Source of the DNA: a virus
Taxonomy: Duplodnaviria; Heunggongvirae; Uroviricota; Caudoviricetes
IMG/VR virus record: IMGVR_UViG_3300024333_000003
Strand: one strand, 5' to 3'
DNA: 64,000 bases
Position numbers and translations under genes: made by a program. The notes below the pieces were generated by a model, which saw only the letters and a list, made by a program, of their open reading frames with translations, searched no databases and had not been told where the DNA came from. This document shows positions 1 to 63,292 of this stretch, in pieces; position 1 is the stretch's first letter, and each line of letters opens with the position of its first letter.

Positions 1-39
1 ACAGATATAAAAGGTGTACAAAAGAATACGTTTATAGAT

Positions 40-558
40 ATGTATTCAAAAAATACACGGGTACAACAATGGAAACATTATTATGAAGTTGTACAGACCA
101 GATCCTTGGAAACTAGAAAGAGCAGGGAATTTTATTTTACGGCTATAACTAATATGCTCGCTAATAGTAAGATTCCTAGGGAACGTGCAGAAATCTACGC
201 AGAAATACCTGATGTAGAAAGTCTGTGGAAACCCTCTGCCATTTCGCATCGTGGCGCCATGGGATTATGGCAAATAATGCCTAACACTGCAAAACGATAT
301 GGGTATAAACCAAATGATATGTATGAGCCAGCAAAAGCTACACAATGCGCTATAAAATATCTGATTTTTTTGGATTCCCTATATAGTGGAGATGTTGCGG
401 CGGTACTATTCGCTTATAATGGAGGCGAAACCGGTGTTGCAACACATGCCAAAATATTTCAAACTAAGAATTTTTGGCATATAGAATTTACAAACCGAGA
501 AACATATAATTTTGCTCCAAAGGTCATAGGAGCGTGGTTGTACAATAACAAATATTAA
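40..558 (+). CDS. SLT-domain lytic transglycosylase; the reading frame is open to nt 1, so the gene may be 5'-truncated by the window edge
   Basis: VESLWKPSAISHRGAMGLWQIMPNTA matches the E-S...GLMQ catalytic motif of the SLT family. No stop codon between nt 1 and the ATG at 40. Confidence 0.6.
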   Translation: MYSKNTRVQQWKHYYEVVQTRSLETRKSREFYFTAITNMLANSKIPRERAEIYAEIPDVESLWKPSAISHRGAMGLWQIMPNTAKRYGYKPNDMYEPAKATQCAIKYLIFLDSLYSGDVAAVLFAYNGGETGVATHAKIFQTKNFWHIEFTNRETYNFAPKVIGAWLYNNKY

Positions 559-560: not shown

Positions 561-1361
561 ATGAACGCATTAAATACCTATTTTAAAGATGTTTCAAAAT
601 ATGGGGTATTAGACGCAGATAAACAAACAGAGATGGTGCTGAGTGCACAACAGGGAGATAAAAAAGCGCAGCATCATCTCGTTGCGTCCAATCTGAAATT
701 CGTCATTTCAGTGGCTCGTCAATATGTAGGACAAGGAATACCGTTAGAAGATCTAATTGCCGAAGGAAATTTAGGTATTTTAAAAGCTATTGATCGCTTC
801 GATCCAGATCAAGGTACTAAATTCCTGACTTATGCCGCATGGTGGATCAGACAATCTATATTATTTGCTTTAGCTGAACACAATAGACAAATTCGGTTGC
901 CAGCCAATCGAATTGGTATATTACAACAATACAATAAAGCGATAATGCAGATGGAACAGGAGTTGAATAGAGAGGTGTCTTCGGGTGAAGTATTGGCAGA
1001 GTTGGGATTGGAAGCCGAAGATCTTGTGCGTCAATCAAGTGTAAGTTACCATACCATCATAGATGAGGGTACTATGCTTATTGATTTGCTACCTAATCCA
1101 GACGGCGAATCTCCTGATGCGGCTTTATTAAAAGATGCATTGAAACAAGAAATACGTCATGTGTTGGCATTGATTCCTACACGAGAACGTACTATATTAA
1201 AAATGTATTATGGTTTCGATGCACAACGAACTTATACACTGGAAGAAATAGGTGAAAAACTAGGTCTTACCAGAGAACGTATAAGACAATTAAGAAACAA
1301 AGCTATAAAAGATCTACGTAGATTAAACCGTAGACGAAAACTCGAGAATCTGAAAGATTAA
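561..1361 (+). CDS. RNA polymerase sigma-70 family factor, primary-sigma-like, with regions 1.2/2/3/4 but no region 1.1
   Basis: DLIAEGNLGILKAIDRFDPDQGTKFLTYAAWWIRQSI is near-identical to RpoD regions 2.1-2.4. TLEEIGEKLGLTRERIRQLRNKAIKDLR matches the region 4.2 HTH. Confidence 0.85.
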   Translation: MNALNTYFKDVSKYGVLDADKQTEMVLSAQQGDKKAQHHLVASNLKFVISVARQYVGQGIPLEDLIAEGNLGILKAIDRFDPDQGTKFLTYAAWWIRQSILFALAEHNRQIRLPANRIGILQQYNKAIMQMEQELNREVSSGEVLAELGLEAEDLVRQSSVSYHTIIDEGTMLIDLLPNPDGESPDAALLKDALKQEIRHVLALIPTRERTILKMYYGFDAQRTYTLEEIGEKLGLTRERIRQLRNKAIKDLRRLNRRRKLENLKD

Positions 1362-2378
1362 ATGGTACATTTTATAAAAACCACAGGGAAAGAATTCGAT
1401 GAGGCATTAACTTTTCTAAAGACTTTGAAAGTAATAAACGTAGATACAGAGACTACAGGCATTGATGCCATACGTGATAAAATATTGTTAATACAAATGG
1501 GAAATATGTATCAACAATATGTCTTTGATGTCGCACGTTTACATGATAGCATCCAGTTATTACGCCCCTTCTTTGAGAGTCAAAGCATAACGAAAATAAT
1601 GCATAACGCAAAATTTGATTATAAATTCCTAAAAAGAGACCTGGGTATAGAAACAGAAAATATATTTGATACTATGTTAGCCGAACAATTGTTACAAAAA
1701 GGGCGAAAAATGTCCGGGTTCGGATTAGATGTAGTAAGTGAAAAATATACCGGTGTTTTGTTAAATAAAACAGTACGCCAGACGTTTCAAAATATGTCTT
1801 ACGGGGATGCAATAAGTACCCCACAAGTTGAATATGCGGCAGGTGATATAAAGCATTTGGCAGCAATAATGGACGCCCAACAAAAACTTATAATTAGAGA
1901 TAATTTGCAACAGGTTATAAATACTGAGATGGGTGTTATTATGGCTACTGGTGATATGGAATTAAATGGTATGAAAATAGACCGTACCAAATGGCTAGCA
2001 GCTGAAGCTGTGGCAAAACGTGAAAGAACTGTTGCCTTAGATAAGTTAGATAAAATGCTGATACCGTATATCGAAAATGACATTTTTGGAAGACCTATTA
2101 TTAATTATAACAGCCCAAAACAGTTACTTAACGTGCTACAAACGGCTGTCGACAAAAATATCACAACGACTCGTGAAGGGGAATTGAAAGAAATTAGTCA
2201 TCCCATTATCGATGCGTTGTTATATTATCGTGGAATGGAAAAACGTGTAACTACTTATGGTGAAGCGTTTTTAAAAAATATACACGAACTAACTGGATTA
2301 ATACATACTGAATTTAATCAAGCCGAAACTGATACCGGCAGGTATAGCAGTAAAAACCCTAAAATATTGGGGGTTTAA
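1362..2378 (+). CDS. polA: Family-A DNA polymerase, 5' part (3'-5' exonuclease domain plus N-terminal polymerase). It ends inside motif A at TGRYSSKNP, so the exon probably ends at nt 2360.
   Basis: Exo motifs (VDTETTG, YAAGD). The C-terminus TGRYSSKNP matches the start of the PolI motif TGRLSSSDPNLQNIP. The ORF terminates 4 codons into the intervening sequence. Confidence 0.8.
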   Translation: MVHFIKTTGKEFDEALTFLKTLKVINVDTETTGIDAIRDKILLIQMGNMYQQYVFDVARLHDSIQLLRPFFESQSITKIMHNAKFDYKFLKRDLGIETENIFDTMLAEQLLQKGRKMSGFGLDVVSEKYTGVLLNKTVRQTFQNMSYGDAISTPQVEYAAGDIKHLAAIMDAQQKLIIRDNLQQVINTEMGVIMATGDMELNGMKIDRTKWLAAEAVAKRERTVALDKLDKMLIPYIENDIFGRPIINYNSPKQLLNVLQTAVDKNITTTREGELKEISHPIIDALLYYRGMEKRVTTYGEAFLKNIHELTGLIHTEFNQAETDTGRYSSKNPKILGV

Positions 2379-2633
2379 TGAAAATTAAACAAAAAGGTGC
2401 TAATTCGAGGAAACGCTCAAAGAGCCAATCTCGAGCTAAACTTAAGAAGATTGTTTTATCTTTGTGGAAATCTAAACACCGACTTAAGAAACGTGTAACG
2501 ACTAGTCGAAAGACGTAGCGATAAGTATCGCGAAATACACCTCACATTTGTGATGAAATAGTCTGATCTATATAGTAATATATAGCTGGAAAATATTCCG
2601 GAGGTAATTTAACGCATTACCTCGAACAAAATG
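2361..2633 (+). other. Putative self-splicing group I intron (~273 nt, no ORF) interrupting polA between ...KNP and NLQNIP...
   Basis: The 5' exon ends in U (cct) and the intervening sequence ends in G. An internal guide GGGGUU (2370-2375) can pair with the exon end AACCCU (P1). An R-like element AACGACUAGUC (2497-2507) and S-like AAAUAGUCUGA (2556-2566) give a P7 pairing GACUA/UAGUC. Joining the two parts restores the conserved TGR.SS..PNLQNIP motif. Confidence 0.6.
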
Positions 2634-3431
2634 AACTTACAAAATATACCTGTAAAAGATACATCGCTATACCGTGAAGCATTTGTTGCTCACACGGACG
2701 AAGATTTGTTAGTAGATGCTGACTACTCAAATATGGAATTGCGAATTCTCGCAGACCTTTCAAAAGAACCTAAATGGATGGAAATTTTTGAAAAGAATTT
2801 AGATATGCACTGCGAAATTGGTTCCGTAGTTATGGGAAAACCTATACGACTAAAAGGTACTAATGGGCCCGACGACCCAGGTGAAAATCTTGAATTACGC
2901 AAAATTGTAAAATCGCTTAATTTCGGAATTTCATATGGAATGGGGGCACAAAAACTCGCGAGAGAAGCAAAAATACCTTTTGCGGAGGCCCGACAAATAA
3001 TTAATAGTTATTGGGCTAGTTTCCCAAACGTCAAAAACTTCTTTGACGCATATGTTGCGAAGTGCATAACTAATAGATGTGTGCGTTCGCCATATGATAA
3101 TAGATTGCGCTGGCTAGAAGGATTCGATTTCGATTCCAATAAAGAGCGCGCTCGCGTGCGTAATATGACAATGAATTTTCCGATGCAGTCGGGAAATGCT
3201 AGTATAACAAAAATTGCTCTTACACACATACGCGAAGAAATAAAAAAAAGTAAATCAACTGCAAAGATTATTTGCACAATTCATGATGAGATTATACTAA
3301 ACGTGAAAAAATCTCAGGCTGAAGAAGCCGAAGCTATGCTTCGAAAATGCATGTTAGAAGCAGGTGAGCTTTACGTAAAAAACGTAAAAATAAAAGTTGA
3401 ATCATGCATAGCCCCCTATTGGAAGAAATAA
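2631..3431 (+). CDS. polA: Family-A DNA polymerase, 3' part (polymerase palm/fingers). The spliced exon probably starts at 2634.
   Basis: NLQNIP at the N-terminus. O-helix/motif B RKIVKSLNFGISYGMG. Motif C HDEIIL. Confidence 0.8.
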   Translation: MNLQNIPVKDTSLYREAFVAHTDEDLLVDADYSNMELRILADLSKEPKWMEIFEKNLDMHCEIGSVVMGKPIRLKGTNGPDDPGENLELRKIVKSLNFGISYGMGAQKLAREAKIPFAEARQIINSYWASFPNVKNFFDAYVAKCITNRCVRSPYDNRLRWLEGFDFDSNKERARVRNMTMNFPMQSGNASITKIALTHIREEIKKSKSTAKIICTIHDEIILNVKKSQAEEAEAMLRKCMLEAGELYVKNVKIKVESCIAPYWKK

Positions 3432-3697
3432 TGAATGGATTTCAATATTATTTCATGAAGGGATTAGAACTGACAGAAGGTACTAAATTAACAGAATATG
3501 AGCGTTACAATATAGCAACAAAATATGCGCAAGGAATGGCATTATGTGACTTAACAGATAGCTTTCGCGTATTGACTGGTGCATTAAGTTCTATACCAGC
3601 GGAGCTGAATAAGTTGAACGATCGGTATTCAAGTACCAGTCTGGCTTATATAGCAAAAGACATCGAAAATATATCAAAATTTTTCTATAAAAATTAA
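3404..3697 (+). CDS. hypothetical protein
   Basis: ORF with compatible codon usage. Overlaps the polA end by 28 nt. Confidence 0.3.
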   Translation: MHSPLLEEIMNGFQYYFMKGLELTEGTKLTEYERYNIATKYAQGMALCDLTDSFRVLTGALSSIPAELNKLNDRYSSTSLAYIAKDIENISKFFYKN

Positions 3698-4074
3698 TGC
3701 AAGAATTTAATTCAGTAAAAGACAACGGAGTACGGGAAGAGTTTGTCACTGGCTCACGGAGAGATACTCGTGAAGGTAAAGGACGTTTTGATCTAATACC
3801 CACAATACCTCTGCGTAGATTAGCAAGACATTACGAAAACGGTGCTGTAAAATATGGTGATCGTAACTGGGAAAAAGGTCAGCCATTAGGCCGTTATCTA
3901 GATAGTGCTTTCAGACACTTAATATGTGTCATGGAGGGACAAACTGACGAGGATCATGTTAGTGCAGTAAGTTGGAATATGTTCGCATATTTACATACAT
4001 TGGAACGTATCAACAATGGAGAACTGCCTGTAGAACTTGATGACATCGGACATAGTAAAAGACCTAAAGTATAA
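3697..4074 (+). CDS. putative dATP/dGTP diphosphohydrolase-like (MazG-like N-terminal domain) protein
   Basis: RFDLIPTIPLRRLARHYENGAVKYGDRNWEKG resembles the phage dNTP pyrophosphohydrolase N-terminal domain family. Confidence 0.4.
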   Translation: MQEFNSVKDNGVREEFVTGSRRDTREGKGRFDLIPTIPLRRLARHYENGAVKYGDRNWEKGQPLGRYLDSAFRHLICVMEGQTDEDHVSAVSWNMFAYLHTLERINNGELPVELDDIGHSKRPKV

Positions 4075-4808: not shown

Positions 4809-6452
4809 TTAGAATATCAAATCGATCTTAATATAATTTACTGGATATGGTGGTAATATTGTTATACTTACCAACACAGTATCCCTGCTTACAGTATCCT
4901 GTGCAACAGATGCTACAACAAAATCATTCAAAATTCCATCACGTATTAACAAGCTACCGGCGCCCTTTATCGCGATTGTAATCATATCTAATGTAGCACG
5001 ATTAATTACATATCTACCAATAAATGGCTCTACGGCACTACGTACAAATTTCGCTGTATAATCTACAGTTTTTGTAATACTTACTTCACGTTTTTCTATC
5101 GAACTCATGTCGGTCGATAACTGATGACGACATACGATAGGAGACGTGAGTTTTGATTGCTTCAAAATATAAGTTCCGCCTTGTGCGATTGTATTTAATT
5201 GTGCTTCAGTGAAATAATCGGAACTATATTTTAGTGAATTAATGTTTGCTAACGAAAGGTTCGTCATTGGTTGTTGTGGTGTATTTCCCGCAATCATGCC
5301 TGCTACTGCTGGCACACCTATTACTGAAATAGGTACTGGTACATAAGCATAAAAGAACACATCACCAGTTTCCATAGCATGCGCTCTTAATGCCAACCAT
5401 AGTGCTTCAGTTATTTCTACACCAAGTCCAGCAACTGGACGAACTGTGTAATTTCGGTAAGCTGTTTGTGAATTGGTGGCACTAAATGTTACTAATTGAT
5501 CGATGTATGCATTTACAGTTACACTATAACCGCTCGTATATAAATCACTAATATACTGGGGTCTCAATGTTGAGATATGTCTTAGTTCTCTTATAAATGC
5601 TACATCAGGGAAAACGTAAATAACGCGTTTTGCGCCTACGCCGGCCGACATTGCAGAATAAGCGGTCGCAGTAGCTGCTTTTGATGCACCCCAAGGAATC
5701 TTAGGCCCACCAAACACTATTCGCTCTTTCTTAGCTGTCGATAACGACATAGCGTTTACATGTGTTTTATAATTTGCAATAATTGCTGTATCATAAGTTA
5801 ATGGCGCTAACGCGTACACTTCTTTTGCTTCTAAATCTGTCATAGCCAACGTGTGACTTGCTGAGGCAGTTGCAATACCTGACACATTACAAGTAATAGA
5901 TGCAAAATCGTCAACAACAGTTCCGTATGCATATGTAGCTGCGTTACCGTTATTCAAAGTCTCGACCAACGCAAATCCCAACGGATTCAGCGCCGATACA
6001 TCTGTCATTTCATCTACAACGGCTTGTAAAGATTCATATAATTCTACCGACATCAGATCTGAACGTAATGCGCGATAACCGATAAACACAGAGGCGCCAT
6101 TCCAATCAGCATTAGCCGGAACGGTCACTGTGCCGGCATTCGCATCTATCGTCAGTCCACTTGCTATAATAAGACGAGATCCCACTGGATTGGTCACTGT
6201 ACCAGTAGCTTTCATAACTAGATCAACATAGACTGACGTCGAATCTAAAGCCATTCCTGCTTCAAAACCATGCAATGTATAAGTTGTCTGTGAGCCATCA
6301 AATACAGCATAATCACTGTCTTTGGTTGAATCTAATGCTTCTACATGGTACGCTGGGCCAATAACAGCCGGTACTAAATCTGGCTGAATTAGTGTTGGAG
6401 AAACTGTCTTTTGAATTTGATTTACCTCTACTTGAGGCGGATTATATGCCAT
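4809..6452 (-). CDS. putative contractile tail sheath-like protein
   Basis: 547 aa with Thr/Ser/Ala/Val-rich composition typical of sheath proteins, followed by a ~220-aa tube-sized gene. No motif-level proof. Confidence 0.35.
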   Translation of the reverse strand: MAYNPPQVEVNQIQKTVSPTLIQPDLVPAVIGPAYHVEALDSTKDSDYAVFDGSQTTYTLHGFEAGMALDSTSVYVDLVMKATGTVTNPVGSRLIIASGLTIDANAGTVTVPANADWNGASVFIGYRALRSDLMSVELYESLQAVVDEMTDVSALNPLGFALVETLNNGNAATYAYGTVVDDFASITCNVSGIATASASHTLAMTDLEAKEVYALAPLTYDTAIIANYKTHVNAMSLSTAKKERIVFGGPKIPWGASKAATATAYSAMSAGVGAKRVIYVFPDVAFIRELRHISTLRPQYISDLYTSGYSVTVNAYIDQLVTFSATNSQTAYRNYTVRPVAGLGVEITEALWLALRAHAMETGDVFFYAYVPVPISVIGVPAVAGMIAGNTPQQPMTNLSLANINSLKYSSDYFTEAQLNTIAQGGTYILKQSKLTSPIVCRHQLSTDMSSIEKREVSITKTVDYTAKFVRSAVEPFIGRYVINRATLDMITIAIKGAGSLLIRDGILNDFVVASVAQDTVSRDTVLVSITILPPYPVNYIKIDLIF

Positions 6453-8346: not shown

Positions 8347-8536
8347 TAGGCACTAAAAGCATATGAAAATCCTTATCCACTTGATCAACTAACGCTTTCA
8401 CTTTTGGACTATCTTCCTCGTATATATCTAATTCCAATCTCCACACATGTGTAGATTTCATGCGTTTGATGCCTACGATATTAATTTTTATAGTTTTGTC
8501 TTGAATAGTTTCTTCAGATTCTTCCGTTGATTCCAT
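8321..8536 (-). CDS. hypothetical small acidic protein
   Basis: 71-aa ORF. Confidence 0.25.
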   Translation of the reverse strand: MESTEESEETIQDKTIKINIVGIKRMKSTHVWRLELDIYEEDSPKVKALVDQVDKDFHMLLVPIDNQQNNT

Positions 8537-10521
8537 AATCCCATACTTAATCCAGTGGCTAGGTCGATACCTATACCAGTGGCTATTCCTTTTCCAATAT
8601 TTTTATTAAACTCATTTTTCGATGAGGTGGCTGCAGTTACCGCAGTACCAATTACAGGGCCAGCAACCAATGATGGTAACAAATATTCTTTTGTCATATG
8701 TTTCCAATCTATTCCGCCCGTCTTTGGCATATTTGCCAAATTATCACCCAGAATCGGTATACTATCTTCGGTTTGCATTTGTTGTGGATCGTCCGGCGGT
8801 ATACGCATTTCCTTTAATCTGGCTATGTTTAATTGCGCATCTGGTCTTGTTGGTTTAAATTTCAGTTTAATTAATCCAGTCTTAGTAAATGCTGGATGAT
8901 AATTACTCATAGAATCTCCTAATACAGGCATTGGTGCAGATGTATCGTTTAATGTAGCTGTCTGAACAGTCTTTAAACCTTTATGTATTTTTGGATCCGG
9001 TGCTTTTTTGTGAAACGGTTCAAGTAATGCAGCTTGTTTGCGTCTTGGCCAAGTTTCACTTCTAATGTCTTTGTATACAGGCATACGAAGTGCACCACTT
9101 GGTAATTTCTCCTGCGCCAGCACACGCGCTACCTGTCCTACATATTTATTTGGAAGTTCAAACATTTCTTTTCTCATTTGATCTGTGAATCCACTACCAA
9201 CCCGACCAATTTCCTCTTTACCATTGTATGAATAAGTAAATCCACCAGCAGCTTTATTTTTATATTTTCCTTCCCCCGGAAATACCGACATTATACGTAC
9301 ATCATAATCTTTGAATAATTTTGCCTTCAATGGTACCGACTTATTTAAATCATATACTACAACGCCCTCTTGTGTTAACGGATGGTTGCCAGAACGTATT
9401 TCATCTAGTAATACTTGTTTTTCATTTATAGTCGTCGCTAGCGGCGGCATTTTTAATTCTGGTATTTCTTTTGAAATATTTTTTAGTATCTCGAGTTTTT
9501 CACTATATGGATGACTACTTACATCTTTACCTTGATAACGAACCACATCAAAAACTACATGATCAAGCGGCGCGTTTTCTTGGAGTTCTCTTGAACGCCA
9601 TACATTTGACAATAATCTAGCTGCAGTGTCTCTTGATGATAAAACATTACCAGATGTTCTATCTTTTGCAAATAGTTCTCCTAATAATACTGTTTTGCCT
9701 GGCATACTCTCCGGAACTATTGCAGTATGAAGTCCAGTACGAAACGTATGATTAATTAACTTTGCAGGTCCTTTCTTGCTTGGACGATAAGAGTATATTT
9801 CAATAGGCATTCCACGTCTAAGCAAAAACGCATTCATTGCTCCATCATACTTCGGTGCTAATATCTCGGTCGACTTTGTTACATCGATGGATTCAGGCTT
9901 TATACTTTGAAATTTAGGTTTCGAAATGTTAACTTCTGGTCGAGTATCTCGCGTAGGTGTAGAGTTCATAAACAGCCAATCATCCCCACCAGTATGTATT
10001 AAAGTATATTTTTCAGTGTCGCCATTAGACTTATACACATTAAAAGATACATGATCAGGTGTACTTTTAGTAACTTCAACCTTATCCGCTGAGAATAACT
10101 TTACTGTTCCAGCGCCGTAACCTGATTTGATTTCACCAGACCATGCCGAGTACTCTGCAGTATGATCAGGTTGATGCACAGCAAGAACTTTTTCGCCTGG
10201 AAACTTAGGTAAGTTACGAGCGGCCCAACTATGTGCAATTCCGGTACGTGGATCAACAAGTCGTAAATCGAAATGTTCTCCAGCCTTATGCGCTTTATGC
10301 TGTTGCACATTAAAGTGCCAATTTTCTGGTGTAGAGAATTCGCGTGGACGTGTTTTTACGTCCCGATCAGGAATACCTAAAGCACCTGCTTTTCCTTTAT
10401 GCTTAAAATATTCAACCTGTTGAAGTCTATGTACAGCCGCTGAACGTGATGAATACGGCCCGCCCAAATTCTTGCCTTTTTCGGACAATACGTGCCAACC
10501 GTCTTTTCTATGTACTATCAT
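8488..10521 (-). CDS. LigD-type 3'-phosphoesterase (PE) domain fused to an ATP-dependent polynucleotide ligase, with a C-terminal Gly-zipper/hydrophobic tail
   Basis: N-terminus EHFDLRLV...AHSWAARNLP...YGAGTVKLFSADK matches the LigD PE signature (H.D.RLE...SWAVPKGP...YGAG). Ligase motif I KYDG in APKYDGAMNAF. Motif IV EGVVVYDL. C-terminus VAGPVIGTAVTAA...GIATGIGIDLATGLSMGLW. Confidence 0.75.
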   Translation of the reverse strand: MIVHRKDGWHVLSEKGKNLGGPYSSRSAAVHRLQQVEYFKHKGKAGALGIPDRDVKTRPREFSTPENWHFNVQQHKAHKAGEHFDLRLVDPRTGIAHSWAARNLPKFPGEKVLAVHQPDHTAEYSAWSGEIKSGYGAGTVKLFSADKVEVTKSTPDHVSFNVYKSNGDTEKYTLIHTGGDDWLFMNSTPTRDTRPEVNISKPKFQSIKPESIDVTKSTEILAPKYDGAMNAFLLRRGMPIEIYSYRPSKKGPAKLINHTFRTGLHTAIVPESMPGKTVLLGELFAKDRTSGNVLSSRDTAARLLSNVWRSRELQENAPLDHVVFDVVRYQGKDVSSHPYSEKLEILKNISKEIPELKMPPLATTINEKQVLLDEIRSGNHPLTQEGVVVYDLNKSVPLKAKLFKDYDVRIMSVFPGEGKYKNKAAGGFTYSYNGKEEIGRVGSGFTDQMRKEMFELPNKYVGQVARVLAQEKLPSGALRMPVYKDIRSETWPRRKQAALLEPFHKKAPDPKIHKGLKTVQTATLNDTSAPMPVLGDSMSNYHPAFTKTGLIKLKFKPTRPDAQLNIARLKEMRIPPDDPQQMQTEDSIPILGDNLANMPKTGGIDWKHMTKEYLLPSLVAGPVIGTAVTAATSSKNEFNKNIGKGIATGIGIDLATGLSMGLWNQRKNLKKLFKTKL

Positions 10522-10540: not shown

Positions 10541-11566
10541 TTACGACCGGCGCAATACGTTTCTCCAATAAATTAAAAGATCCTTATTTATATCATCAAG
10601 ACCTTTTGTTGGTTTCCATCCAGTAGCTTGCATAAATTTAGTACAATCGGGTATTTGTAGTGTAATATCAGTAGGCCTGATTAATGCTAAATCTATTTCT
10701 ATTTTGAAATCAGTTGGTTGTATATAACTTTTAGATATTAAATCATTTAATGCTTCACCGACAGTACATGTGTGATTGCCACCTATATTATAAACTTCGC
10801 CGACTGTACATTTATTGGCGGCTAACCAATAAGCATGTACAGCATCGTCTATATGAGCATAAGTGCGCACAGAATTAAGATTTCCCACACGAATTATATA
10901 TTTTGAATTTCCATAAGAGCGATTATTTATATCTTGTCTATACTGCATTTCGCCTTGTACAATTTGATATGCAAAACTAGATAATGCAAATTTCCTTCCC
11001 CGGCGTGCACCTTCGTGACTAAACATCCTGGTAGTTATTATTTTTAATCCAAATGCTTTATGATAATACTGTGACATCAGATCGTGTCCGACTTTTGATA
11101 TACTATATGGATTTGCCGCTCTAATTGGGTTAGTTTCTTTTATAGGCACTTCTGAAGGATCCGGCATACCATATACTTCGCTGGAACTAACACTTACTAT
11201 AATCGGATCTATACGGCCATCTAATACCGCAAGATGTATTTCATCTAATAAATTGGCAGTTCCAATGATATTTGTTTGTAAAGTATGTATCGGATAAATA
11301 AAACTCGTTTCAGGAAAACTCTGGGCGGCAAAATGCCAAATAATATCTGGTTTTGCTTTTCGCAATAACAAACTTAGACTGCCACGATCCATCAGATCCG
11401 CCTCTATGAAATTGACTCGCGGATTACCGTACAAATGTACTATATTCTCGTCACGACTGCGCCAACGTCTAGAAGCGTAAATCATGCCATCAGTATTAGC
11501 TAATAAATAATCAATCATATGTGAACCAACAAATCCAGTGGCACCGGTTATAAGATAATTAGGCAT
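10541..11566 (-). CDS. NDP-sugar 4,6-dehydratase (GDP-mannose/dTDP-glucose dehydratase family)
   Basis: GATGFVGSHMIDYL Rossmann motif. KETNPIRAANPYSISKVGHDLM matches the dehydratase TxxPxxPxSPYxxSK motif. Confidence 0.75.
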   Translation of the reverse strand: MPNYLITGATGFVGSHMIDYLLANTDGMIYASRRWRSRDENIVHLYGNPRVNFIEADLMDRGSLSLLLRKAKPDIIWHFAAQSFPETSFIYPIHTLQTNIIGTANLLDEIHLAVLDGRIDPIIVSVSSSEVYGMPDPSEVPIKETNPIRAANPYSISKVGHDLMSQYYHKAFGLKIITTRMFSHEGARRGRKFALSSFAYQIVQGEMQYRQDINNRSYGNSKYIIRVGNLNSVRTYAHIDDAVHAYWLAANKCTVGEVYNIGGNHTCTVGEALNDLISKSYIQPTDFKIEIDLALIRPTDITLQIPDCTKFMQATGWKPTKGLDDINKDLLIYWRNVLRRS

Positions 11567-23095: not shown

Positions 23096-23104
23096 GGTAT
23101 AAGA
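23096..23104 (+). promoter_or_regulatory. GGTATAAGA promoter element (-10-like TATAAG)
   Basis: One of 13 same-strand intergenic copies of this 9-mer. Confidence 0.5.
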
Positions 23105-23156: not shown

Positions 23157-23351
23157 ATGGCTAAACGTCGTAGAAAGAAAAAGTTTTCTAATTTTCATAT
23201 AAAAGCACTACAGTCGTATAAGGTTTTACCTAGTGAAGATACAATAACACTTGCGAACTTGCGCGATCCAAGACTAACAAGAACAGATGGTGGACAAGTA
23301 CGTCCTGTATTTTATGATGAAAATCTAAATGTAGCCTTTGGGTCAAATTAG
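23157..23351 (+). CDS. small highly basic protein (MAKRRRKKK...), lone + strand cassette
   Basis: RBS aaaggag 7 nt upstream. Own promoter and terminator. Confidence 0.45.
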   Translation: MAKRRRKKKFSNFHIKALQSYKVLPSEDTITLANLRDPRLTRTDGGQVRPVFYDENLNVAFGSN

Positions 23352-24653: not shown

Positions 24654-25034
24654 TTAATGTGTACGACGAACAATCCTATTGGTAAATAACTTGCCATTCT
24701 CCACCATATACTTTTCGCCGGAGTCTAAGTTGATATGTATATCATAATAATATACACTGGCTCCATCCATTAATAGCGACACAGTGGGCTCTGCAATAAA
24801 TTGTAATTGTGCTGAACCGTCAGCGTTATTTGTAACCTCACCTATACCCGAGGCTGTCGTATACCTTGTTATATGAATTGAAAATACAGCATCTACATCA
24901 GGAAGATCAACATCAGATTTAACGGTCCAGAAAGCATCTGTTACAATATGGCTGCCAGGCACTGTACTCAACGTGCGGGTTAAAGAATACGTGTCACCAA
25001 TAGTAAAATCATCGATATTTTTAATATCTTGCAT
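24654..25034 (-). CDS. hypothetical structural protein
   Basis: ORF. Confidence 0.3.
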   Translation of the reverse strand: MQDIKNIDDFTIGDTYSLTRTLSTVPGSHIVTDAFWTVKSDVDLPDVDAVFSIHITRYTTASGIGEVTNNADGSAQLQFIAEPTVSLLMDGASVYYYDIHINLDSGEKYMVENGKLFTNRIVRRTH

Positions 25035-25077
25035 TTGTTCTCCTATTAATATACTAAAAAATTATATAAATGTCAAC

Positions 25078-25137: not shown

Positions 25138-26052
25138 TTATGCATTTGACCAAGTTAATTTTGCAACTGCCTTGTTGTTGATAATAGCCATACCAATGGT
25201 CTCATATGCGGACCACTTAATCAGGTTACGTTTCTTCTCTATCCAGAATTTAACATCGTTTAGGACATAGAATTTACCCATAAATTCCTGAGGTGCGAAC
25301 GCATACATTGTGCCTTCTGGAACCAAATCGCCCTTAATTGTCGTTACGAACTTTTTGCCCAAAATTGTTGCGTATTTAAAACCGTTAATATACACTTCAC
25401 TTGCAGCCGGCGAACCTACTGTCGTTGCAGGTAGTGTAGCTAGTTTATTGTAATCTGCTTGGTTCATTAACACTACATCAACTACCAATGGATTTGTTCC
25501 AGTTGTGGAATCTTCCATCTTGTTGAATAGTTTTGTGAACATGTTCAACTCCATAATTCCTGAAGTTGTGGTTGTGTACGTTACCGTCTTACTCGAAGCT
25601 GCAACTGCTGCTGCTACTGCAGTCATGAATGCTGTATCTTCAATCTTCATGATCTCTTTTACTGCATTACGTTCAACTAGTTCAGTTATTGGCATTTCAT
25701 ATGCTAATAGCTCTTCTTCAACCTTTTGGAATTCTTTCGAACTAATACCAAAGAAAGAAACCTCTGCACGGTCGCCTTCAACGTATTGAACGTCTGGTTG
25801 TCCGCGTAGAGTAATCATCATTGCACCTGCATCCGGTTCGATGTCAACGATTTTAACTAATTGCTCGTGTAATGTAGTACGCTGTAAATCAGCCTTAGTT
25901 ACATATTGTGGGTTAATAATTTTGCGAGAAAATGCGTTCTCACGCAATTTGGTACGAATATACTGACCAACCTCTTGTGCCACCTTCTCTAATTCAGTAT
26001 CAAGGCGGTTAACGAAAATTTCGTTCAATGCTTTAGTGTTTACACTTTCCAT
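25138..26052 (-). CDS. putative major capsid protein (HK97-fold size class)
   Basis: 304 aa. Immediately followed by a strong terminator, the typical position and expression context for an MCP. No motif proof. Confidence 0.4.
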   Translation of the reverse strand: MESVNTKALNEIFVNRLDTELEKVAQEVGQYIRTKLRENAFSRKIINPQYVTKADLQRTTLHEQLVKIVDIEPDAGAMMITLRGQPDVQYVEGDRAEVSFFGISSKEFQKVEEELLAYEMPITELVERNAVKEIMKIEDTAFMTAVAAAVAASSKTVTYTTTTSGIMELNMFTKLFNKMEDSTTGTNPLVVDVVLMNQADYNKLATLPATTVGSPAASEVYINGFKYATILGKKFVTTIKGDLVPEGTMYAFAPQEFMGKFYVLNDVKFWIEKKRNLIKWSAYETIGMAIINNKAVAKLTWSNA

Positions 26053-28261: not shown

Positions 28262-28289
28262 TATTAACGAAAAATTTACTTAATGTCAA
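28262..28289 (-). promoter_or_regulatory. sigma-70-like promoter TTGACA-16-TTAATA with an SD-containing leader
   Basis: Minus strand reads ccctaTTGACAttaagtaaatttttcgTTAATA...aggagaactttctATG. Confidence 0.45.
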
Positions 28290-30042
28290 TAGGGATGTAA
28301 TCTATAACGTCGTTGTAAAATTTTTCTAGTTTGTCTGGCTTCAATCCCAAGATAAGACGATCTATTGCATCCAAAGAGTATTCGGATGTTTTTGCCATGA
28401 CCCCGATAGGGGGCATTTTCATTATCTTGTGAAGCTGGCCTAGGGTAAATGTGCCGCCCGCGCCAGCTAGAAATGGATGACGTCGTACGAAGTCTCCAAA
28501 TTCAGTTATCGGCTCACCTTTCTGAAGTTTTGCTTCTTGTGATCCAGCATAGATATACGATGCTGGCACAGCCATAAGCAAACGTTTCAAAAAATGTGGA
28601 CGTATGATAGCCGCGGTCTTATTAAACATAAGATCTTGGATTCCAACAGTGCCGGCTGCTGCCGCACCCAACACGATAGGAATAAGCCATGGTTTTGATA
28701 GGAGAAATTTTTCAAAGTTTCCCGTTTCCGCAAGAGTTTTTCCAGTCAGCCCAATCTTATCCATCAAGGCATTGTAACCAATATACAATGCGCCCAAACC
28801 CAATAACGGCATCAACGGATTTTTTATAGGAGCAAAAGTAGATTCCGCCGGACGTTTCAAGGTTGGGGCATGAACTCCTGGATTAATAGTAATTGCTACG
28901 GGCGATGACTCTGTAGTGAGTTCGGCCCGTTTTATCAAAACACGTTTTATAACATGAGGAACTGTTAATGACATACCTGGTGCCCAATGAGCAATTTTTT
29001 GGGCTAGTTCGTCATTAAAGTTTTGAAGTGATATATCATTTGGAAATTCAGGATCTTCATCCATATCCATTAATGATATGTTAGAGTCGTAACACGACTC
29101 GGCTAATTTTTCTTGCCCGCCCTTTGATAGAATAATGTATTGAAATTCTGTCGGAGTCGGAACTATACGCATACCCAACATAGTCGAAAGAATTTCATTA
29201 GATGCATATTTTGCTACTACTTCTTTTAATTCTTCTTTAGGCATCGGTTGTTGTGATGCGTATATTAAACGCTTCGGATCCGCATCAACAGCCGCTATTG
29301 TACCATCAACCAATTTATTTATAGCTGATTCTTTTACACCTGATTCTTTGAAGAACTGTTGCGCTATTACTGCTGATGGAATTTCAGCTTGTACAGATGC
29401 AATTTTACTAAGTACACTAGCGGTACGATCGGCTGGAATTCGTACAAAACTAATATCAAAAAATTTCAAATCAGTATCATTTATAGCGTAAATTTTTTGA
29501 CCGTCTGGTAATGTAATGCCCATTTGATTTTTTAAATGATCACAATAGTCAGACACGCGCTTGCTTTTTTTCTTACATATACTGCATGTGTCAAAGGGAA
29601 CTTTTACCCCCATAGACACTGCTGGATATTCGCCTTTTTCTATACGATCAAGAATTTCTTTTGCCCGTTCATTGTCAAGCTCAAGCACTAGTTCGACACG
29701 ATGCATATCGGGATTGAATACCGCGATCTTTACCTGACCAAAACTTTTCAAGGGATCTTTGTTCACATGATGCTTGTATGCGTGCCCAAGTTTTTCAAAT
29801 GTCTTGTGATCACGACATAACGACAAGTCGGGGAAATAATCGCCATTGCGATTTGGACCCCAGAATTCGCCAGATCCCATTGCGTTAACAAGCACATACG
29901 TCTTGCTTGCTTTCTTTTCGAGCCCTTTTACACGATCACGGAGTTCTTGTGAATATTCAGCAGTCTTCGTTAACGAGTCTGACCAGAATTGAATAAAAGT
30001 TCCGGAATCGTTATGTAAATCAAAACTTGTAAATTTTATCAT
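28276..30042 (-). CDS. large head-morphogenesis protein (portal and/or prohead protease candidate)
   Basis: 588 aa. Position between the terminase and the scaffold genes. Confidence 0.3.
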   Translation of the reverse strand: MIKFTSFDLHNDSGTFIQFWSDSLTKTAEYSQELRDRVKGLEKKASKTYVLVNAMGSGEFWGPNRNGDYFPDLSLCRDHKTFEKLGHAYKHHVNKDPLKSFGQVKIAVFNPDMHRVELVLELDNERAKEILDRIEKGEYPAVSMGVKVPFDTCSICKKKSKRVSDYCDHLKNQMGITLPDGQKIYAINDTDLKFFDISFVRIPADRTASVLSKIASVQAEIPSAVIAQQFFKESGVKESAINKLVDGTIAAVDADPKRLIYASQQPMPKEELKEVVAKYASNEILSTMLGMRIVPTPTEFQYIILSKGGQEKLAESCYDSNISLMDMDEDPEFPNDISLQNFNDELAQKIAHWAPGMSLTVPHVIKRVLIKRAELTTESSPVAITINPGVHAPTLKRPAESTFAPIKNPLMPLLGLGALYIGYNALMDKIGLTGKTLAETGNFEKFLLSKPWLIPIVLGAAAAGTVGIQDLMFNKTAAIIRPHFLKRLLMAVPASYIYAGSQEAKLQKGEPITEFGDFVRRHPFLAGAGGTFTLGQLHKIMKMPPIGVMAKTSEYSLDAIDRLILGLKPDKLEKFYNDVIDYIPIDIK

Positions 30043-30619: not shown

Positions 30620-31567
30620 TTATCCTCGATAGTTTACTGGAATATTGTGTAACGGGCTATTTTCTCGTTTTATTGTTTCCTTAGCCACAACTGGAAGTGC
30701 TAATGCGCCTATTCCAGTACCAACAGCTAGACCAGTACCAAATACTGCTGGGTGCTTTAAAACTTTTTTCACTGTCTCACCAATTACTCCACCAAGTTTA
30801 TAAAGTTCCCATTCTTCGTATAGTTGTGCAAGTTTATCTTGCAGTGTTTTATACTCATTAGCAATCTTTATTAACAATAACGATTGTTGAAACAAAGGAT
30901 GGCGTGTGTTTACCGGATGTGTATAAGCCACATCCGCTGTTTTTGTCATAGATCCAATCGGCATATTGGAAGTTAACCTGGTTTCCACTTCCTTTAACGT
31001 TTCAACAAATATCGGGTCATTATTTATACTAAGTGCCGCACTAATATCGTTATAACTTGTGCCACCAAGTACTGCTTGTTTTATCATGTCTTCCAGAACG
31101 CACGCTTCCTTTGCAAACAATAATTGACCATCAGTAATCATTCCCAATATAGTTGCTTCAGCTGCCTTAAAACGCCAATAGTCTTTTAACTTAGCATCTG
31201 CAGCTTCTTGCGGCTGAGTTTCTGCGACCTTTTCAAAAATAGGTGCAAACTCAGGAACTTCGTATTCTGGAGCTTCGTAATAATCGATATTATAATTTTT
31301 AGTTTCGGCCGTCTTTGTCGATGTAGTTGCGGCCTGAATAGCTATTGGATCTGCAGTATCAAATTGTATATATTTCTCATCACTCTTGTTAAATAAATTC
31401 ATATACACATCGGTGTTGGCAGCTTCGATTACCCTAGCTACTTGTGCTTGATTTAATCCATTATCCGCCGCAATTTTTATGATCGACTCATTTAGCGACT
31501 TTCCGTCTTTCAGGTACTCTGTTGCTGCTTGTTTAGCAAAGAGTTCTAATTCATAACTTGATACCAT
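30620..31567 (-). CDS. hypothetical protein with C-terminal Gly-zipper
   Basis: GTGLAVGTGIGALALPVV. Confidence 0.3.
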   Translation of the reverse strand: MVSSYELELFAKQAATEYLKDGKSLNESIIKIAADNGLNQAQVARVIEAANTDVYMNLFNKSDEKYIQFDTADPIAIQAATTSTKTAETKNYNIDYYEAPEYEVPEFAPIFEKVAETQPQEAADAKLKDYWRFKAAEATILGMITDGQLLFAKEACVLEDMIKQAVLGGTSYNDISAALSINNDPIFVETLKEVETRLTSNMPIGSMTKTADVAYTHPVNTRHPLFQQSLLLIKIANEYKTLQDKLAQLYEEWELYKLGGVIGETVKKVLKHPAVFGTGLAVGTGIGALALPVVAKETIKRENSPLHNIPVNYRG

Positions 31568-31603
31568 GTAATTGATTCTCCTATAGTAGATTATACAAAA
31601 ATC

Positions 31604-31981
31604 TTAACTCTCAGTCAAGACCTTAAGTAATTCTGTTTTGAATGCAGCGATCTTGCTTGCATTTATACCTTTAAACCCGGGAGCAGTGCGTTTCATACCA
31701 ATAGCATTAATACAGCCAGGAGTAGTACGATTATTACTACCTATTTTTTCGACACCTGCGTATGAAAATACCACTTTTTTTGCTACTTCCCGTTCTTCGG
31801 GGTTTAAGTTGTGAAATACGTTAGCTATTTGTTTAGCTGACTCTAGCACTGTTTTAGGAGTAGCTAATGGTTGATGCGCTTCGGTCCTTTTTGTGTTTAG
31901 ATAAAGTTTAGTTAATCTTTCATTTACCGCGTTGCCGGAAGTATCGGTAAGCCTTGAAAAACGTTTAATAGGTGTCTTCAT
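31604..31981 (-). CDS. hypothetical protein
   Basis: ORF. Confidence 0.3.
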   Translation of the reverse strand: MKTPIKRFSRLTDTSGNAVNERLTKLYLNTKRTEAHQPLATPKTVLESAKQIANVFHNLNPEEREVAKKVVFSYAGVEKIGSNNRTTPGCINAIGMKRTAPGFKGINASKIAAFKTELLKVLTES

Positions 31982-38931: not shown

Positions 38932-38965
38932 AGAGAAATTTACGCATATTTAATATAAATGTCAA
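38932..38965 (-). promoter_or_regulatory. sigma-70-like promoter TTGACA-17-TAAATT with the ATG 5 nt downstream (leaderless)
   Basis: Minus strand reads TTGACAtttatattaaatatgcgTAAATTtctctATG. Confidence 0.55.
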
Positions 38966-38971: not shown

Positions 38972-38980
38972 GGTATAAGA
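38972..38980 (+). promoter_or_regulatory. GGTATAAGA promoter element, back-to-back with the divergent minus-strand promoter
   Basis: aTGGTATAAGAt upstream of gene 39007. Confidence 0.5.
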
Positions 38981-40834: not shown

Positions 40835-40843
40835 GGTATAAGA
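40835..40843 (+). promoter_or_regulatory. GGTATAAGA promoter element
   Basis: aTGGTATAAGAat with a possible -35 TTGTTT 17 nt upstream. Confidence 0.5.
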
Positions 40844-43080: not shown

Positions 43081-43089
43081 GGTATAAGA
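43081..43089 (+). promoter_or_regulatory. GGTATAAGA promoter element
   Basis: aTGGTATAAGAt. Confidence 0.5.
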
Positions 43090-46831: not shown

Positions 46832-47065
46832 TTATTTTCTTGAGGATGAGGGGATATATTTTTTTGATTTATTTTTGGCGAATGTAATGTGCTTTAGGGC
46901 TGAAGGAAGTAATGCGGTATAAGAACATAGAAGGATTAGATGTCCTCTTTCTAACCGACACCGTGCACGGTTTTTGTCACAAAGGGAAGGCGAGTAACTA
47001 TCGCCACCTTCTCTTTTACATAAATGAAAAAGGGCAGCCTCAGCCACCCTTTTCATAATTTTCAA
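46832..47065 (-). CDS. hypothetical small protein
   Basis: ORF. Confidence 0.25.
   Translation of the reverse strand: MKIMKRVAEAALFHLCKREGGDSYSPSLCDKNRARCRLERGHLILLCSYTALLPSALKHITFAKNKSKKYIPSSSRK
46916..46924 (+). promoter_or_regulatory. GGTATAAGA promoter element. It shares a 17-nt identity (ggtataagaacatagaa) with the copy at 57340 and is followed by a short palindrome plus T5.
   Basis: cGGTATAAGAACATAGAAgg. Downstream accgtgcacggt followed by ttttt at about 46961-46977. Confidence 0.4.
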
Positions 47066-47412: not shown

Positions 47413-47446
47413 GGTATAATATACGAAATTATTTAAACAAAGTCAA
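47413..47446 (-). promoter_or_regulatory. sigma-70-like promoter TTGACT-17-TATATT with the ATG 5 nt downstream (leaderless)
   Basis: Minus strand reads TTGACTttgtttaaataatttcgTATATTataccATG. Confidence 0.5.
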
Positions 47447-47451: not shown

Positions 47452-47460
47452 GGTATAAGA
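47452..47460 (+). promoter_or_regulatory. GGTATAAGA promoter element. An additional TGGTATAAT extended -10 lies at 47412-47420.
   Basis: gTGGTATAAGAg upstream of gene 47563. Confidence 0.45.
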
Positions 47461-55044: not shown

Positions 55045-55078
55045 ACAAGAATATACGAAAGTATATTCAAAAATGCAA
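55045..55078 (-). promoter_or_regulatory. sigma-70-like promoter TTGCAT-17-TATATT with the ATG 5 nt downstream (leaderless)
   Basis: Minus strand reads TTGCATttttgaatatactttcgTATATTcttgtATG. Confidence 0.5.
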
Positions 55079-55087
55079 GGTATAAGA
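55079..55087 (+). promoter_or_regulatory. GGTATAAGA promoter element, abutting the divergent -35 box
   Basis: aGGTATAAGAat upstream of gene 55131. Confidence 0.45.
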
Positions 55088-57339: not shown

Positions 57340-57348
57340 GGTATAAGA
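57340..57348 (+). promoter_or_regulatory. GGTATAAGA promoter element
   Basis: gTGGTATAAGAACATAGAAaggag upstream of gene 57368. Confidence 0.5.
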
Positions 57349-57910: not shown

Positions 57911-58445
57911 TATGAATATAGCGATTCACTTTGCCGACTTCAATGCATATGGGTGTCCGCAATGCGGGTGTTCTTCCGCTACTGGTTATCTTTCTGGGAA
58001 TGGGACAACTTGCGTACAATGCCTTGAATGCAAGGAAGCTTTTTATATTGTTTCGGATCATCTATCAGTATCTACCATAGGTCATGGTGATCCTGCCGTA
58101 TTTCCAGAGGTATCACCACATCCACGTGCGCATGTTCCAGCACATAATTTGGTAGTGCCAGACAACCCACCTCCCGAGGGGGAATATTTTGCGCCCAGAG
58201 GTGTTGGTTATGATTTGGCTGGATTTGTAAGATGTAAGCAAGCCGGAGAACGAATAGTTCAAATGTTTACAGAGATACTACGGTGTAAACCAAAAACTTT
58301 TCTTGATTATCGTCCAAATGAACCACTGTGGATTCAGGTTAAGGTAAAAGCTGAAGATCATATAGATCTTGAAAAACTTAACGAACTTACGCAAAACGGA
58401 ATCATTACAAAACAAAAGATACAGCAATGTTTAATTCAGGTATAA
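57897..58445 (+). CDS. Cys-rich (zinc-ribbon) protein
   Basis: CPQCGC...CVQCLEC. Confidence 0.3.
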   Translation: MSEYNMNIAIHFADFNAYGCPQCGCSSATGYLSGNGTTCVQCLECKEAFYIVSDHLSVSTIGHGDPAVFPEVSPHPRAHVPAHNLVVPDNPPPEGEYFAPRGVGYDLAGFVRCKQAGERIVQMFTEILRCKPKTFLDYRPNEPLWIQVKVKAEDHIDLEKLNELTQNGIITKQKIQQCLIQV

Positions 58446-58447
58446 GA
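58439..58447 (+). promoter_or_regulatory. GGTATAAGA promoter element
   Basis: aGGTATAAGAt, followed by a ~460-nt ORF-free region. Confidence 0.45.
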
Positions 58448-61821: not shown

Positions 61822-61830
61822 GGTATAAGA
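61822..61830 (+). promoter_or_regulatory. GGTATAAGA element
   Basis: aCGGTATAAGAat. Confidence 0.35.
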
Positions 61831-61878
61831 ATATAAGTACACGATACCCTCCCTTTCGTGTATCTAAGCCTTCCTAAT

Positions 61879-61916
61879 GCACGAGTTTCTGACTGGTTAC
61901 TCGTGCATTTTTTTTA
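61879..61916 (+). terminator. rho-independent terminator
   Basis: gcacgagt-N12-actcgtgc followed by a T9 run. Confidence 0.8.
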
Positions 61917-61918: not shown

Positions 61919-61927
61919 GGTATAAGA
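61919..61927 (+). promoter_or_regulatory. GGTATAAGA promoter element
   Basis: cGGGTATAAGAt upstream of gene 61953. Confidence 0.45.
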
Positions 61928-63214: not shown

Positions 63215-63223
63215 GGTATAAGA
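63215..63223 (+). promoter_or_regulatory. GGTATAAGA promoter element
   Basis: tTGGTATAAGAat. Confidence 0.45.
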
Positions 63224-63283: not shown

Positions 63284-63292
63284 GGTATAAGA
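63284..63292 (+). promoter_or_regulatory. GGTATAAGA promoter element
   Basis: tTGGTATAAGAt. Confidence 0.45.

Follow-up and report, generated by a model that had tools for sequence, protein, structure and literature searches.

A primary-like sigma factor in a lineage of large myoviruses and the two promoter-like sequence classes that accompany it

Several phages redirect the core RNA polymerase of their host to a conserved phage motif by means of specificity subunits of their own, such as gp28 and gp33/34 of SPO1, gp55 of T4 and gp36 of phiEco32, and the late promoter of T4, TATAAATA, is a short, invariant, -10-type element without a -35 sequence. Large phages that have no RNA polymerase of their own and encode a sigma factor 'close to the cellular RpoD' have also been described (Iyer et al. 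2021, PMC7824862), and in phage vB_PcaM_CBB, which has several promoter classes, the early genes include one for the region 2-4 sigma factor CBB_513 (PMC5259590). An RpoD-like sigma factor is already documented for large phages, and the addition made here is a clade related to the primary sigma factors (sigma-A) of bacteria of the FCB group (Bacteroidota, Ignavibacteriota, Chlorobiota and relatives). The member of this clade under study is encoded by a plus-strand gene in a 64,000-nucleotide (nt) stretch of Caudoviricetes DNA (IMG/VR record IMGVR_UViG_3300024333_000003), referred to in the following as the window. The window contains two distinct promoter-like classes that are strictly partitioned by strand and by gene set, namely class (a), the exact 9-mer GGTATAAGA, and class (b), TTGACW-N16-GTAWAWT. 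The product of the sigma gene probably directs host RNA polymerase to promoters of the phage, and we tentatively favour a division of labour in which the phage sigma factor reads GGTATAAGA and the host sigma factor reads the canonical class.

The open reading frame (ORF) of the sigma gene runs from the ATG at 561 to the TAA at 1359-1361 and encodes a product of 266 amino acids (aa), in which Pfam detected Sigma70_r2 (5.8e-20, 71.3 bits, cut-off 24), Sigma70_r3 (5.4e-07, 30.1 bits, cut-off 25.3) and Sigma70_r4 (2.4e-14, 53 bits, cut-off 24.1). The profile of PHROG 351 (RNA polymerase sigma factor) matched residues 22-263 (E = 4.3e-58), and solved SigA/RpoD chains in the PDB aligned with residues 4-265, with E values down to 3.6e-53. 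The ORF, the three Pfam regions and the SigA/RpoD alignment bear out what had been proposed from the letters of the DNA alone (hereafter, the sequence-only reading), namely that the phage encodes its own primary-type sigma factor, and show it to be full-length and primary-like (group 1/2-type). Among the NCBIfam sigma models, only that of the sigma-70 superfamily was passed (TIGR02937, 118.8 bits against a cut-off of 42.9). The RpoD/SigA models remained below their curated cut-offs (NF006666, 202 against 572; TIGR02393, 200.5 against 354; NF004208, 192.8 against 555), as did the RpoS models (TIGR02394, 208.8 against 378.7; NF004207, 198.2 against 394), and the best NCBIfam match was rpoS_proteo (208.8, cut-off 378.7). 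MzaA, a defence-system sigma factor of ~726 aa, was rejected as an identity (207 against a cut-off of 800); its C-terminal sigma module alone aligned. The product is probably a functional sigma-70-family subunit that would act on the host core RNA polymerase with a promoter specificity chosen by the phage.

The stop codon of the preceding SLT-domain gene lies 2 nt ahead of the sigma ATG, and the ATG of the following DNA polymerase I gene (PolA) begins on the base right after the sigma stop codon; the three genes form one tight, translationally packed unit.

With regard to ancestry, BLASTP identities of the phage sigma factor were 40-44% to FCB sigma-A, 35-36% to SigA of Staphylococcus aureus and Bacillus subtilis, 35% to Escherichia coli sigma-70 and 32% to E. 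coli RpoS. In a large protein collection, the nearest group consisted of proteins of 250-268 aa that were 50-79% identical and encoded on contigs of up to ~200 kb, followed by cellular 'primary sigma factors' of 284-291 aa (43-47% identical). The carriers of the cellular relatives were almost all FCB bacteria (Hymenobacter, Marinilabiliales, Flavobacteriales, Cytophagales, Bacteroidales, Ignavibacteriota, Marinimicrobia, Gemmatimonadota and Chlorobiaceae). As the scan of genome contigs for these relatives used the pattern YA[SVA]WWI, which is biased toward FCB sequences, the affinity rests on the independent scores and identities (structure chains, protein collection and BLASTP) and not on the scan list alone. 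A simple neighbour-joining tree placed the phage clade as sister to FCB sigma-A, neither nested inside it nor with RpoS. From these comparisons, the phage protein is best described as a primary-like (group-2-like) sigma factor of a phage-only clade, and not as a copy of RpoD.

The phage protein begins at region 1.2, and the absence of region 1.1 had been noted correctly in the sequence-only reading, where a phage copy without this autoinhibitory region was suggested to keep transcription going once the host sigma factor is inactivated. The absence is not a phage-specific loss of autoinhibition, because FCB sigma-A, the nearest cellular relatives, start just 16-19 residues before region 1.2 and likewise have no region 1.1, so that the missing region is a family trait and can simply reflect ancestry. 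The short sigma factor of the Bacteroidetes has been termed an 'unusual primary sigma factor' (PMC9723704, PMC7366714). FCB sigma-A, including sigma-AB of Bacteroides fragilis and the proteins of Flavobacterium, Ignavibacteria and Chlorobi, also shares with the phage protein the absence of the non-conserved insert, as well as F386, L440, N455, R/K456, G458 and the TRER(I/V)RQ helix. The phage protein differs from it in that the N-terminal extension of 16-19 residues (MRQLKI..TNRE; 266 against 284-291 aa) is missing, region 3.1 has lost 5 residues at its end, the finger of region 3.2 is shortened by 3 residues and the C-terminal tail, RRLNRRRKLENLKD, is basic, the phage clade having RRLNRRRK in place of RH(P/T)SRSK.

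Residue positions are given here in E. coli sigma-70 numbering, as obtained by alignment. Identical to E. coli are F419, F427, Y430, W433, W434, R436, Q437, R448 and R451, together with the whole recognition helix of region 4.2 (T583-Q589, TRERIRQ), so that the -35-reading equivalents of R584, E585, R588 and Q589 and also Q437 are those of a canonical primary sigma factor. The differences (L386F, Y425T, S428L, T432A, T440L, R441F, H455N, M456R, E458G) are mostly common to FCB sigma-A. Per region, identity to E. coli was 41% (2.1), 59% (2.2), 53% (2.3), 47% (2.4) and 57% (4.2), and identity to the FCB consensus 59% (2.3), 74% (2.4) and 67% (4.2), whereas region 1.2 was divergent (9% and 26%, respectively). 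The statement that regions 2 and 4.2 are almost identical to the housekeeping consensus was hence too strong, given the 35% identity overall, and is true of nothing but the aromatic residues for melting and the helix of region 4.2. The alignment of specificity residues, named beforehand as the comparison that could overturn the sequence-only reading, came out divided, with changes in regions 2.4/3.0 (T440L, R441F, H455N, E458G) and none in region 4.2. Nor can the residues tell whether the protein recognises TTGACA/TATAAT, as had been expected: Bacteroidota sigma-A, with the same 4.2 helix, uses TTTG/TAnnTTTG promoters (PMC9723704, PMC7366714), and Chlorobaculum sigma-A has yet another consensus, TTG-N17-23-TA[ATC][ATC][AT]T.

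The pocket for T at -7 is formed by L110, L111, E114, N383, L386, K426 and S428 (PMC7566282), the phage equivalents of which are V16, L17, D20, N44, F47, K87 and L89. When 28 sigma factors of the phage clade were compared with 89 cellular FCB sigma factors, only 8 positions were fixed to different residues, and half of these lie in regions 1.2 (E116Q, I123A) and 2.3 (L428 for FCB I; T429 for FCB S), position 428 being a pocket residue. The others are 447 (N for S), 558 (I for V) and two C-terminal positions. Q116, A123, L428, T429 and N447, which replace the E, I, I, S and S of the cellular FCB proteins, thus constitute a signature with frequencies of 93-100% in the phage clade.

Both promoter classes announced by the sequence-only reading exist. 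The 9-mer GGTATAAGA occurs 13 times in the window against 0.59 occurrences expected, a count reached in 0 of 100 shuffles; all 13 sites are on the plus strand, 11 are intergenic, and a 14th lies 28 nt past the end of the window. The sites are found 7-45 nt ahead of a Shine-Dalgarno sequence or directly after terminator hairpins. The element is all-or-none: variants with one mismatch fall almost exclusively in coding DNA, which is where chance would place them. It resembles an extended -10 (TGnTATAAT) in which -13 and -7 are both G and -6 is A, and no hidden -35 was found, since no upstream position is conserved and TTG at -35 is present at 3 of 16 sites against a background of 12%. Between the site at 61822 and the next one, a candidate small RNA of ~80 nt (61831-61918, plus strand) was detected, with two hairpins in its fold (-26.2 kcal/mol, z = -7.5) and a T-run behind the second one. 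The presence of an RNA with its terminator between two consecutive copies supports promoter function of GGTATAAGA. Searches of Rfam at gathering thresholds gave no match, including for this RNA.

The exact 9-mer recurs in the related contigs L088, L094, L097 and L098, whose sigma factors are 64, 52, 57 and 54% identical, respectively, and the GC content of the relatives that carry it ranges from 36.6% to 43.9% (L088). In L088 it stands upstream of a tRNA at a position syntenic with L003:5732, and in the two distant relatives L094 and L097 immediately upstream of SLT-sigma-PolA. No covariation between sigma factor and motif was seen, as every relative with the 9-mer carries it unchanged. In an attempt to find the promoter-rich regions of relatives through a 371-aa protein, scans of viral and metagenomic sequences gave one distant locus, and the large protein search gave homologues of at most 45% identity, on other contigs. 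Among the matches listed by a literature search, none linked GGTATAAGA to phage transcription. A lone near-copy, CGTATAAGA, lies inside the sigma gene itself (1278-1286, plus strand), where it forms the R-I-R codons of the TRERIRQ helix, and is probably a coincidence.

Class (b) matches the window at 4 sites, all on the minus strand, against 0.05 expected, and 0 of 100 shuffles reached this number. The sites head or punctuate the minus-strand structural blocks, and all carry the G at -13 that is also present in class (a) and in 19% of background matches. The class is degenerate and fits the Chlorobaculum sigma-A consensus. In sister phages, class (b)-like sites on the plus strand precede tRNA-Met and an HNH gene, ~5 kb before the sigma gene. 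The idea that the promoters of the phage look host-like therefore stands for these few top-scoring, well-placed sites and fails for generic sigma-70 promoter scans, which were unenriched over shuffles (72 against 70.3; 87 against 84.3). Classical Bacteroidota promoters were rejected as a further candidate class, with intergenic TAnnTTTG at 1.3-fold and zero sites for TTTG-N19-TAnnTTTG.

Table 1. Genes of the SLT-sigma-PolA unit and promoter-like sites of the two classes in the window.
Feature	Position	Strand	Remark
SLT-domain lytic transglycosylase gene	1..558	+	5' end outside window; Pfam SLT on 215-aa product in L003
Sigma-70-family gene	561..1361	+	regions 1.2-4.2; without region 1.1; without non-conserved insert
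DNA polymerase I, N-terminal part (3'-5' exonuclease + start of polymerase domain)	1362..2378	+	Pfam DNA_pol_A_exo1, DNA_pol_A
Class (a) GGTATAAGA	23096..23104	+	upstream of + ORF 23157-23351
Class (b) TTGACA-N17-TATATT, G at -13	25048..25076	-	upstream of ORF 24654-25034, just downstream of major head gene
Class (b) TTGACT-N17-TATAAT, G at -13	31590..31618	-	upstream of ORF 30620-31567
Class (b) TTGACA-N17-TAAATT, G at -13	38937..38965	-	head of long - structural block
Class (a) GGTATAAGA	38972..38980	+	27 nt upstream of ORF 39007-39279; divergent from class (b) 38937-38965
Class (a) GGTATAAGA	40835..40843	+	upstream of ORF 40930-41541
Class (a) GGTATAAGA	43081..43089	+	upstream of ORF 43145-43531
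Class (a) GGTATAAGA	46916..46924	+	no annotated + gene close by
Class (b) TTGACT-N17-TATATT, G at -13	47418..47446	-	upstream of ORF 47188-47412
Class (a) GGTATAAGA	47452..47460	+	upstream of ORF 47563-48168; divergent from class (b) 47418-47446
Class (b)-like TTGCAT-N17-TATATT, G at -13	55050..55078	-	head of - block 55044-48214
Class (a) GGTATAAGA	55079..55087	+	upstream of ORF 55131-56246; abuts class (b)-like 55050-55078
Class (a) GGTATAAGA	57340..57348	+	20 nt upstream of SLT/endolysin-like ORF 57368-57910
Class (a) GGTATAAGA	58439..58447	+	next + ORF 470 nt downstream
Class (a) GGTATAAGA	61822..61830	+	followed by ~80-nt structured RNA ending in intrinsic terminator
Class (a) GGTATAAGA	61919..61927	+	26 nt upstream of ORF 61953-63170
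Class (a) GGTATAAGA	63215..63223	+	just past terminator hairpin
Class (a) GGTATAAGA	63284..63292	+	second of tandem pair

We infer the pairing of sigma factors with promoter classes, and the roles of individual residues, as follows. The host sigma-A holoenzyme would start transcription at the degenerate class (b), and transcripts that reach the sigma operon would yield the phage sigma factor; the first of them could come from the class (b)-like plus-strand sites located ~5 kb upstream in the sister phages. The phage sigma factor would then read the invariant, -35-independent, extended -10-like element (T)GGTATAAGA, which would drive the tRNAs, the SLT-sigma-PolA operon (and hence a positive feedback), many small ORFans, auxiliary genes and the short structured RNA. 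Changes that might accommodate the G at -7 and the A at -6 are E116Q and I123A in region 1.2 and L428 and T429 in region 2.3, where the replacement of Y425 by a small/polar residue could take part, and the G at -13 of both classes may be read by the FCB-type N455/R456 surface.

A phage-encoded reader is suggested for class (a) because the motif is invariant, all-or-none and kept across divergent phages, and the phage sigma factor could fill this role since a -10-type element suits its primary-like region 2. The pairing is further favoured because the clade-fixed substitutions cluster in the readers of -7 to -4, where the two classes differ. Class (b) would be left to the host because it looks like an ordinary, degenerate host-type promoter and fits a non-Bacteroidota FCB sigma-A. 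By virtue of the invariant 9-mer in the sigma-bearing clade and the clade-fixed substitutions, the suggestion of the sequence-only reading that a slightly altered primary-like sigma factor drives the GGTATAAGA class is somewhat better supported than its expectation of TTGACA/TATAAT recognition. Taken further, and with more reserve, the system might represent a natural re-specification, in which a primary sigma factor of FCB type, through a changed region 1.2 and T-7 pocket, reads the -35-independent GGTATAAGA with G instead of T at -7 and feeds back on its own operon, as an autonomous circuit in phages of non-Bacteroidota FCB (Ignavibacteria/Chlorobi-like) hosts; this is possible, on the doubtful side.

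Several points weigh against assigning GGTATAAGA to the phage sigma factor. The equivalents of the -35-contacting R584, E585, R588 and Q589 are invariant across the phage clade, which would be unexpected for a sigma factor of -35-less promoters only and is more in keeping with class (b). Since the sigma gene is itself part of a class (a) transcription unit, the model needs a bootstrap from another promoter. Class (b) precedes structural genes, which are normally late, and class (a) replication and ORFan genes, which are normally early or middle, while in the textbook order a phage sigma factor from an early/middle module switches on the late class. In addition, the class (b) pattern, whose enrichment is given above, was refined after its sites had been inspected, and most genes in the window are ORFans, so that another, unrecognised factor could read GGTATAAGA.

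In line with the main idea of the sequence-only reading, a sigma factor for late genes or for replacement deserves to be weighed, unlikely as we consider it. The phage protein would here read TTGACW-N16-GTAWAWT, either as a late switch or as a takeover after inactivation of the host sigma factor, and GGTATAAGA would be read by a factor present at the start of infection (the host holoenzyme or an injected factor). The recognition helix of region 4.2 and Q437, both invariant across the clade, would suit such a role, as would the presence of class (b) at the head of every minus-strand structural block and the place of the sigma gene in the replication module, directly behind GGTATAAGA in L094 and L097, which is the usual position of a late-gene sigma factor. 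The surface of sigma region 4 is the binding site of anti-sigma factors and activators, and the basic tail RRLNRRRK would alter it. However, if the host sigma factor reads class (b) too, no temporal switch would result unless it is blocked, and neither an anti-sigma factor, which the sequence-only reading had proposed to look for, nor a second sigma factor was found within the 64-kb window in the Pfam tables or in PHROG scans of 20 proteins encoded behind class (a) sites. Moreover, an exact -35-less 9-mer in phages with 52-100% identical sigma factors is unlike early promoters read by the host, and the clade-fixed substitutions lie in the readers of -7 and the discriminator, not in regions 2.4 or 4.2.

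It is improbable that the phage sigma factor reads neither class and instead reprograms the host, by acting on host genes or by competing for core polymerase, with GGTATAAGA left to an unrecognised phage factor or the host holoenzyme. Action on host programmes has been described for host-like sigma factors that phages carry (bioRxiv 10.1101/2021.11.12.468384), the DNA-reading residues are close to those of FCB sigma-A (74% to the consensus in region 2.4), and the mostly ORFan gene content leaves room for such a factor. Against this, every relative examined has the gene, without exception and in synteny, as a core gene of the replication module, which speaks for a part that is essential to the phage's own programme and not for an accessory one in manipulating the host. 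The protein also stands in a clade of its own, marked by fixed signature changes, and is not a recent copy of a host protein. Lastly, the very divergent region 1.2, the shortened region 3.1/3.2 and the RpoD/RpoS scores under cut-offs might point to the remnant of a host sigma gene that decayed or lost its function after acquisition. This reading is effectively refuted by the conservation pattern, with the frame intact in 28 of 28 clade members, every key functional residue among the 44 invariant columns, synteny and translational coupling kept, and an identical protein on many contigs.

This identical sigma protein was found on 20 metagenomic contigs from several samples, the longest of 215 kb, and the SLT-sigma-PolA order is kept in 7 related contigs (L087, L088, L089, L094, L097, L098 and the P0022 contig) with sigma factors that are 52-77% identical. 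The three genes are part of a module for replication and nucleotide metabolism (RecU, dUTPase, RNR, JAB/ThiF, ligase), which in related contigs adjoins the tail-sheath block on the opposite strand. These comparisons indicate that large myoviruses of 90-215 kb form a lineage in which the sigma gene belongs to the core and has been passed on vertically. The window itself is phage DNA, in which a tail sheath (4809-6452), a major head protein (25138-26052), a protease/scaffold (28276-30042) and a large terminase (31993-34653) were identified, all on the minus strand, among genes that are mostly ORFans. A DNA search gave no close deposited phage. In tblastn against deposited phages, the best sigma match was ~35% identical and none exceeded 37%; the capsid was 33% identical to that of Salmonella phage Arash, with Vibrio phages and Bacillus phage G also among the nearest, and PolA was 33-37% identical to that of crAss-like phages.

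As host, an FCB bacterium outside Bacteroidota proper is weakly hinted at by the sigma ancestry, the common G at -13, a GC content of ~37% and a moderate use of Shine-Dalgarno sequences. AGGAG-type sequences precede 40% of phage gene starts (background 7%), compared with 11% in Bacteroidota loci, 23% in Ignavibacteria and 67% in Marinimicrobia, from small samples, and Bacteroidota proper are thereby disfavoured. Two other host clues were discarded, namely the GDP-mannose 4,6-dehydratase, which is 64-74% identical to proteins of many unrelated taxa, and the nearest isolated phages, given the low identities above and the lack of a DNA match.

A 252-nt insert (gap 2379-2630) divides the DNA polymerase I gene (1362-3431) into two ORFs and carries a very basic ORF of 46 aa (2378-2518). 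In relatives the gene is either intact (L088, L094; 600 aa) or broken by HNH_3/LAGLIDADG homing-endonuclease ORFs (L087, L089, L098), which suggests that the insert is an intron, a mobile insertion or a remnant thereof; Rfam detected no group I intron in this region at the gathering threshold. Similarly, the large terminase has 886 aa with the terminase match confined to residues 510-876, together with faint LAGLIDADG_3 matches and a thymidylate-synthase PHROG match at residues 137-269, and its extra part may be an intein or a fused domain.

Genes for tRNA-Met, tRNA-Val and tRNA-Ser lie at L003:5003-6436, ~3-4.4 kb upstream of window position 1, that for tRNA-Val being directly preceded by GGTATAAGA; the tRNA sets of the sister phages L087, L088 and L089 are similar, L098 has tRNA-like sequences in equivalent gaps, and no tRNA gene was found inside the window. 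A phage-borne ABC transporter would be formed by the products of a conserved module at L003:877-4313, with equivalents in L087, L088 and L089: an ABC ATPase, a permease-like protein and a protein with an OmpA domain, which in L089 also has an NMT1 substrate-binding domain. In the window, a dGTP_diPhyd_N-domain protein (3697-4074, plus strand), a LigD_N and ATP-ligase fusion (8488-10521, minus strand) and the GDP-mannose 4,6-dehydratase (10541-11566, minus strand) could be a module for nucleotides, DNA modification or sugars, and glycosyltransferase or acetyltransferase genes are located near equivalent loci in relatives. Besides the SLT gene of the sigma unit (1-558), a second, separate SLT-domain transglycosylase is encoded at 57368-57910 (both plus strand); its product has a hydrophobic N-terminus and may be an endolysin, and its gene begins 20 nt past GGTATAAGA. 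Unusual phage cargo includes a 105-aa protein with a Mito_carr Pfam match (53165-53482, minus strand) and a 319-aa protein with a Band_7 (SPFH) domain (60861-61820, plus strand). Past the right end of the window (~3.6-6.4 kb; L096:13576-16448, plus strand), a PARP/WGR-type ADP-ribosyltransferase and an NAD synthase follow a GGTATAAGA site, with an RNA ligase and ClpP further on. Alt and Mod of T4 are ADP-ribosyltransferases that modify host proteins including the polymerase, and by analogy one may speculate that the L096 enzyme could modify host polymerase or other host proteins.

If the assignment of GGTATAAGA to the phage sigma factor is true, the two would be a compact natural pair of a primary-like sigma factor and an exact 9-bp promoter, suited to studying the -7 pocket and region 1.2 in -10 specificity, and a possible orthogonal promoter/sigma module for FCB bacteria, whose transcription signals standard tools serve poorly. 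Compared with known systems, the 'group 2' jumbo phages (e.g., CBB) likewise combine a near-complete cellular-type sigma factor (regions 2-4), no RNA polymerase of their own, and host-like as well as divergent promoter classes. The present clade differs from them in its FCB relationship, in a best match to deposited phages of ~35%, in a capsid that is not gp23-type by the matches obtained, and in a DNA polymerase of family A instead of B. E. coli RpoS and the group 2 sigma factors resemble the phage protein in being of a non-essential type, primary-like and with little or no region 1.1, whereas its identity to RpoS is 32% and the tree places it with the FCB primary sigma factors. Unlike promoters of FCB Bacteroidota, the window shows no enrichment of the -7 box TAnnTTTG (1.3-fold). 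As for the sigma factors of SPO1, T4 and phiEco32, these are highly diverged or truncated, while in the present one region 4 is complete and the DNA-reading residues have stayed primary-like. The redirection to a conserved phage motif that we infer here, by linking the sigma factor to GGTATAAGA, would nevertheless be of the same kind, and GGTATAAGA shares with the T4 late promoter TATAAATA the nature of a short, invariant, -35-less, -10-type element.

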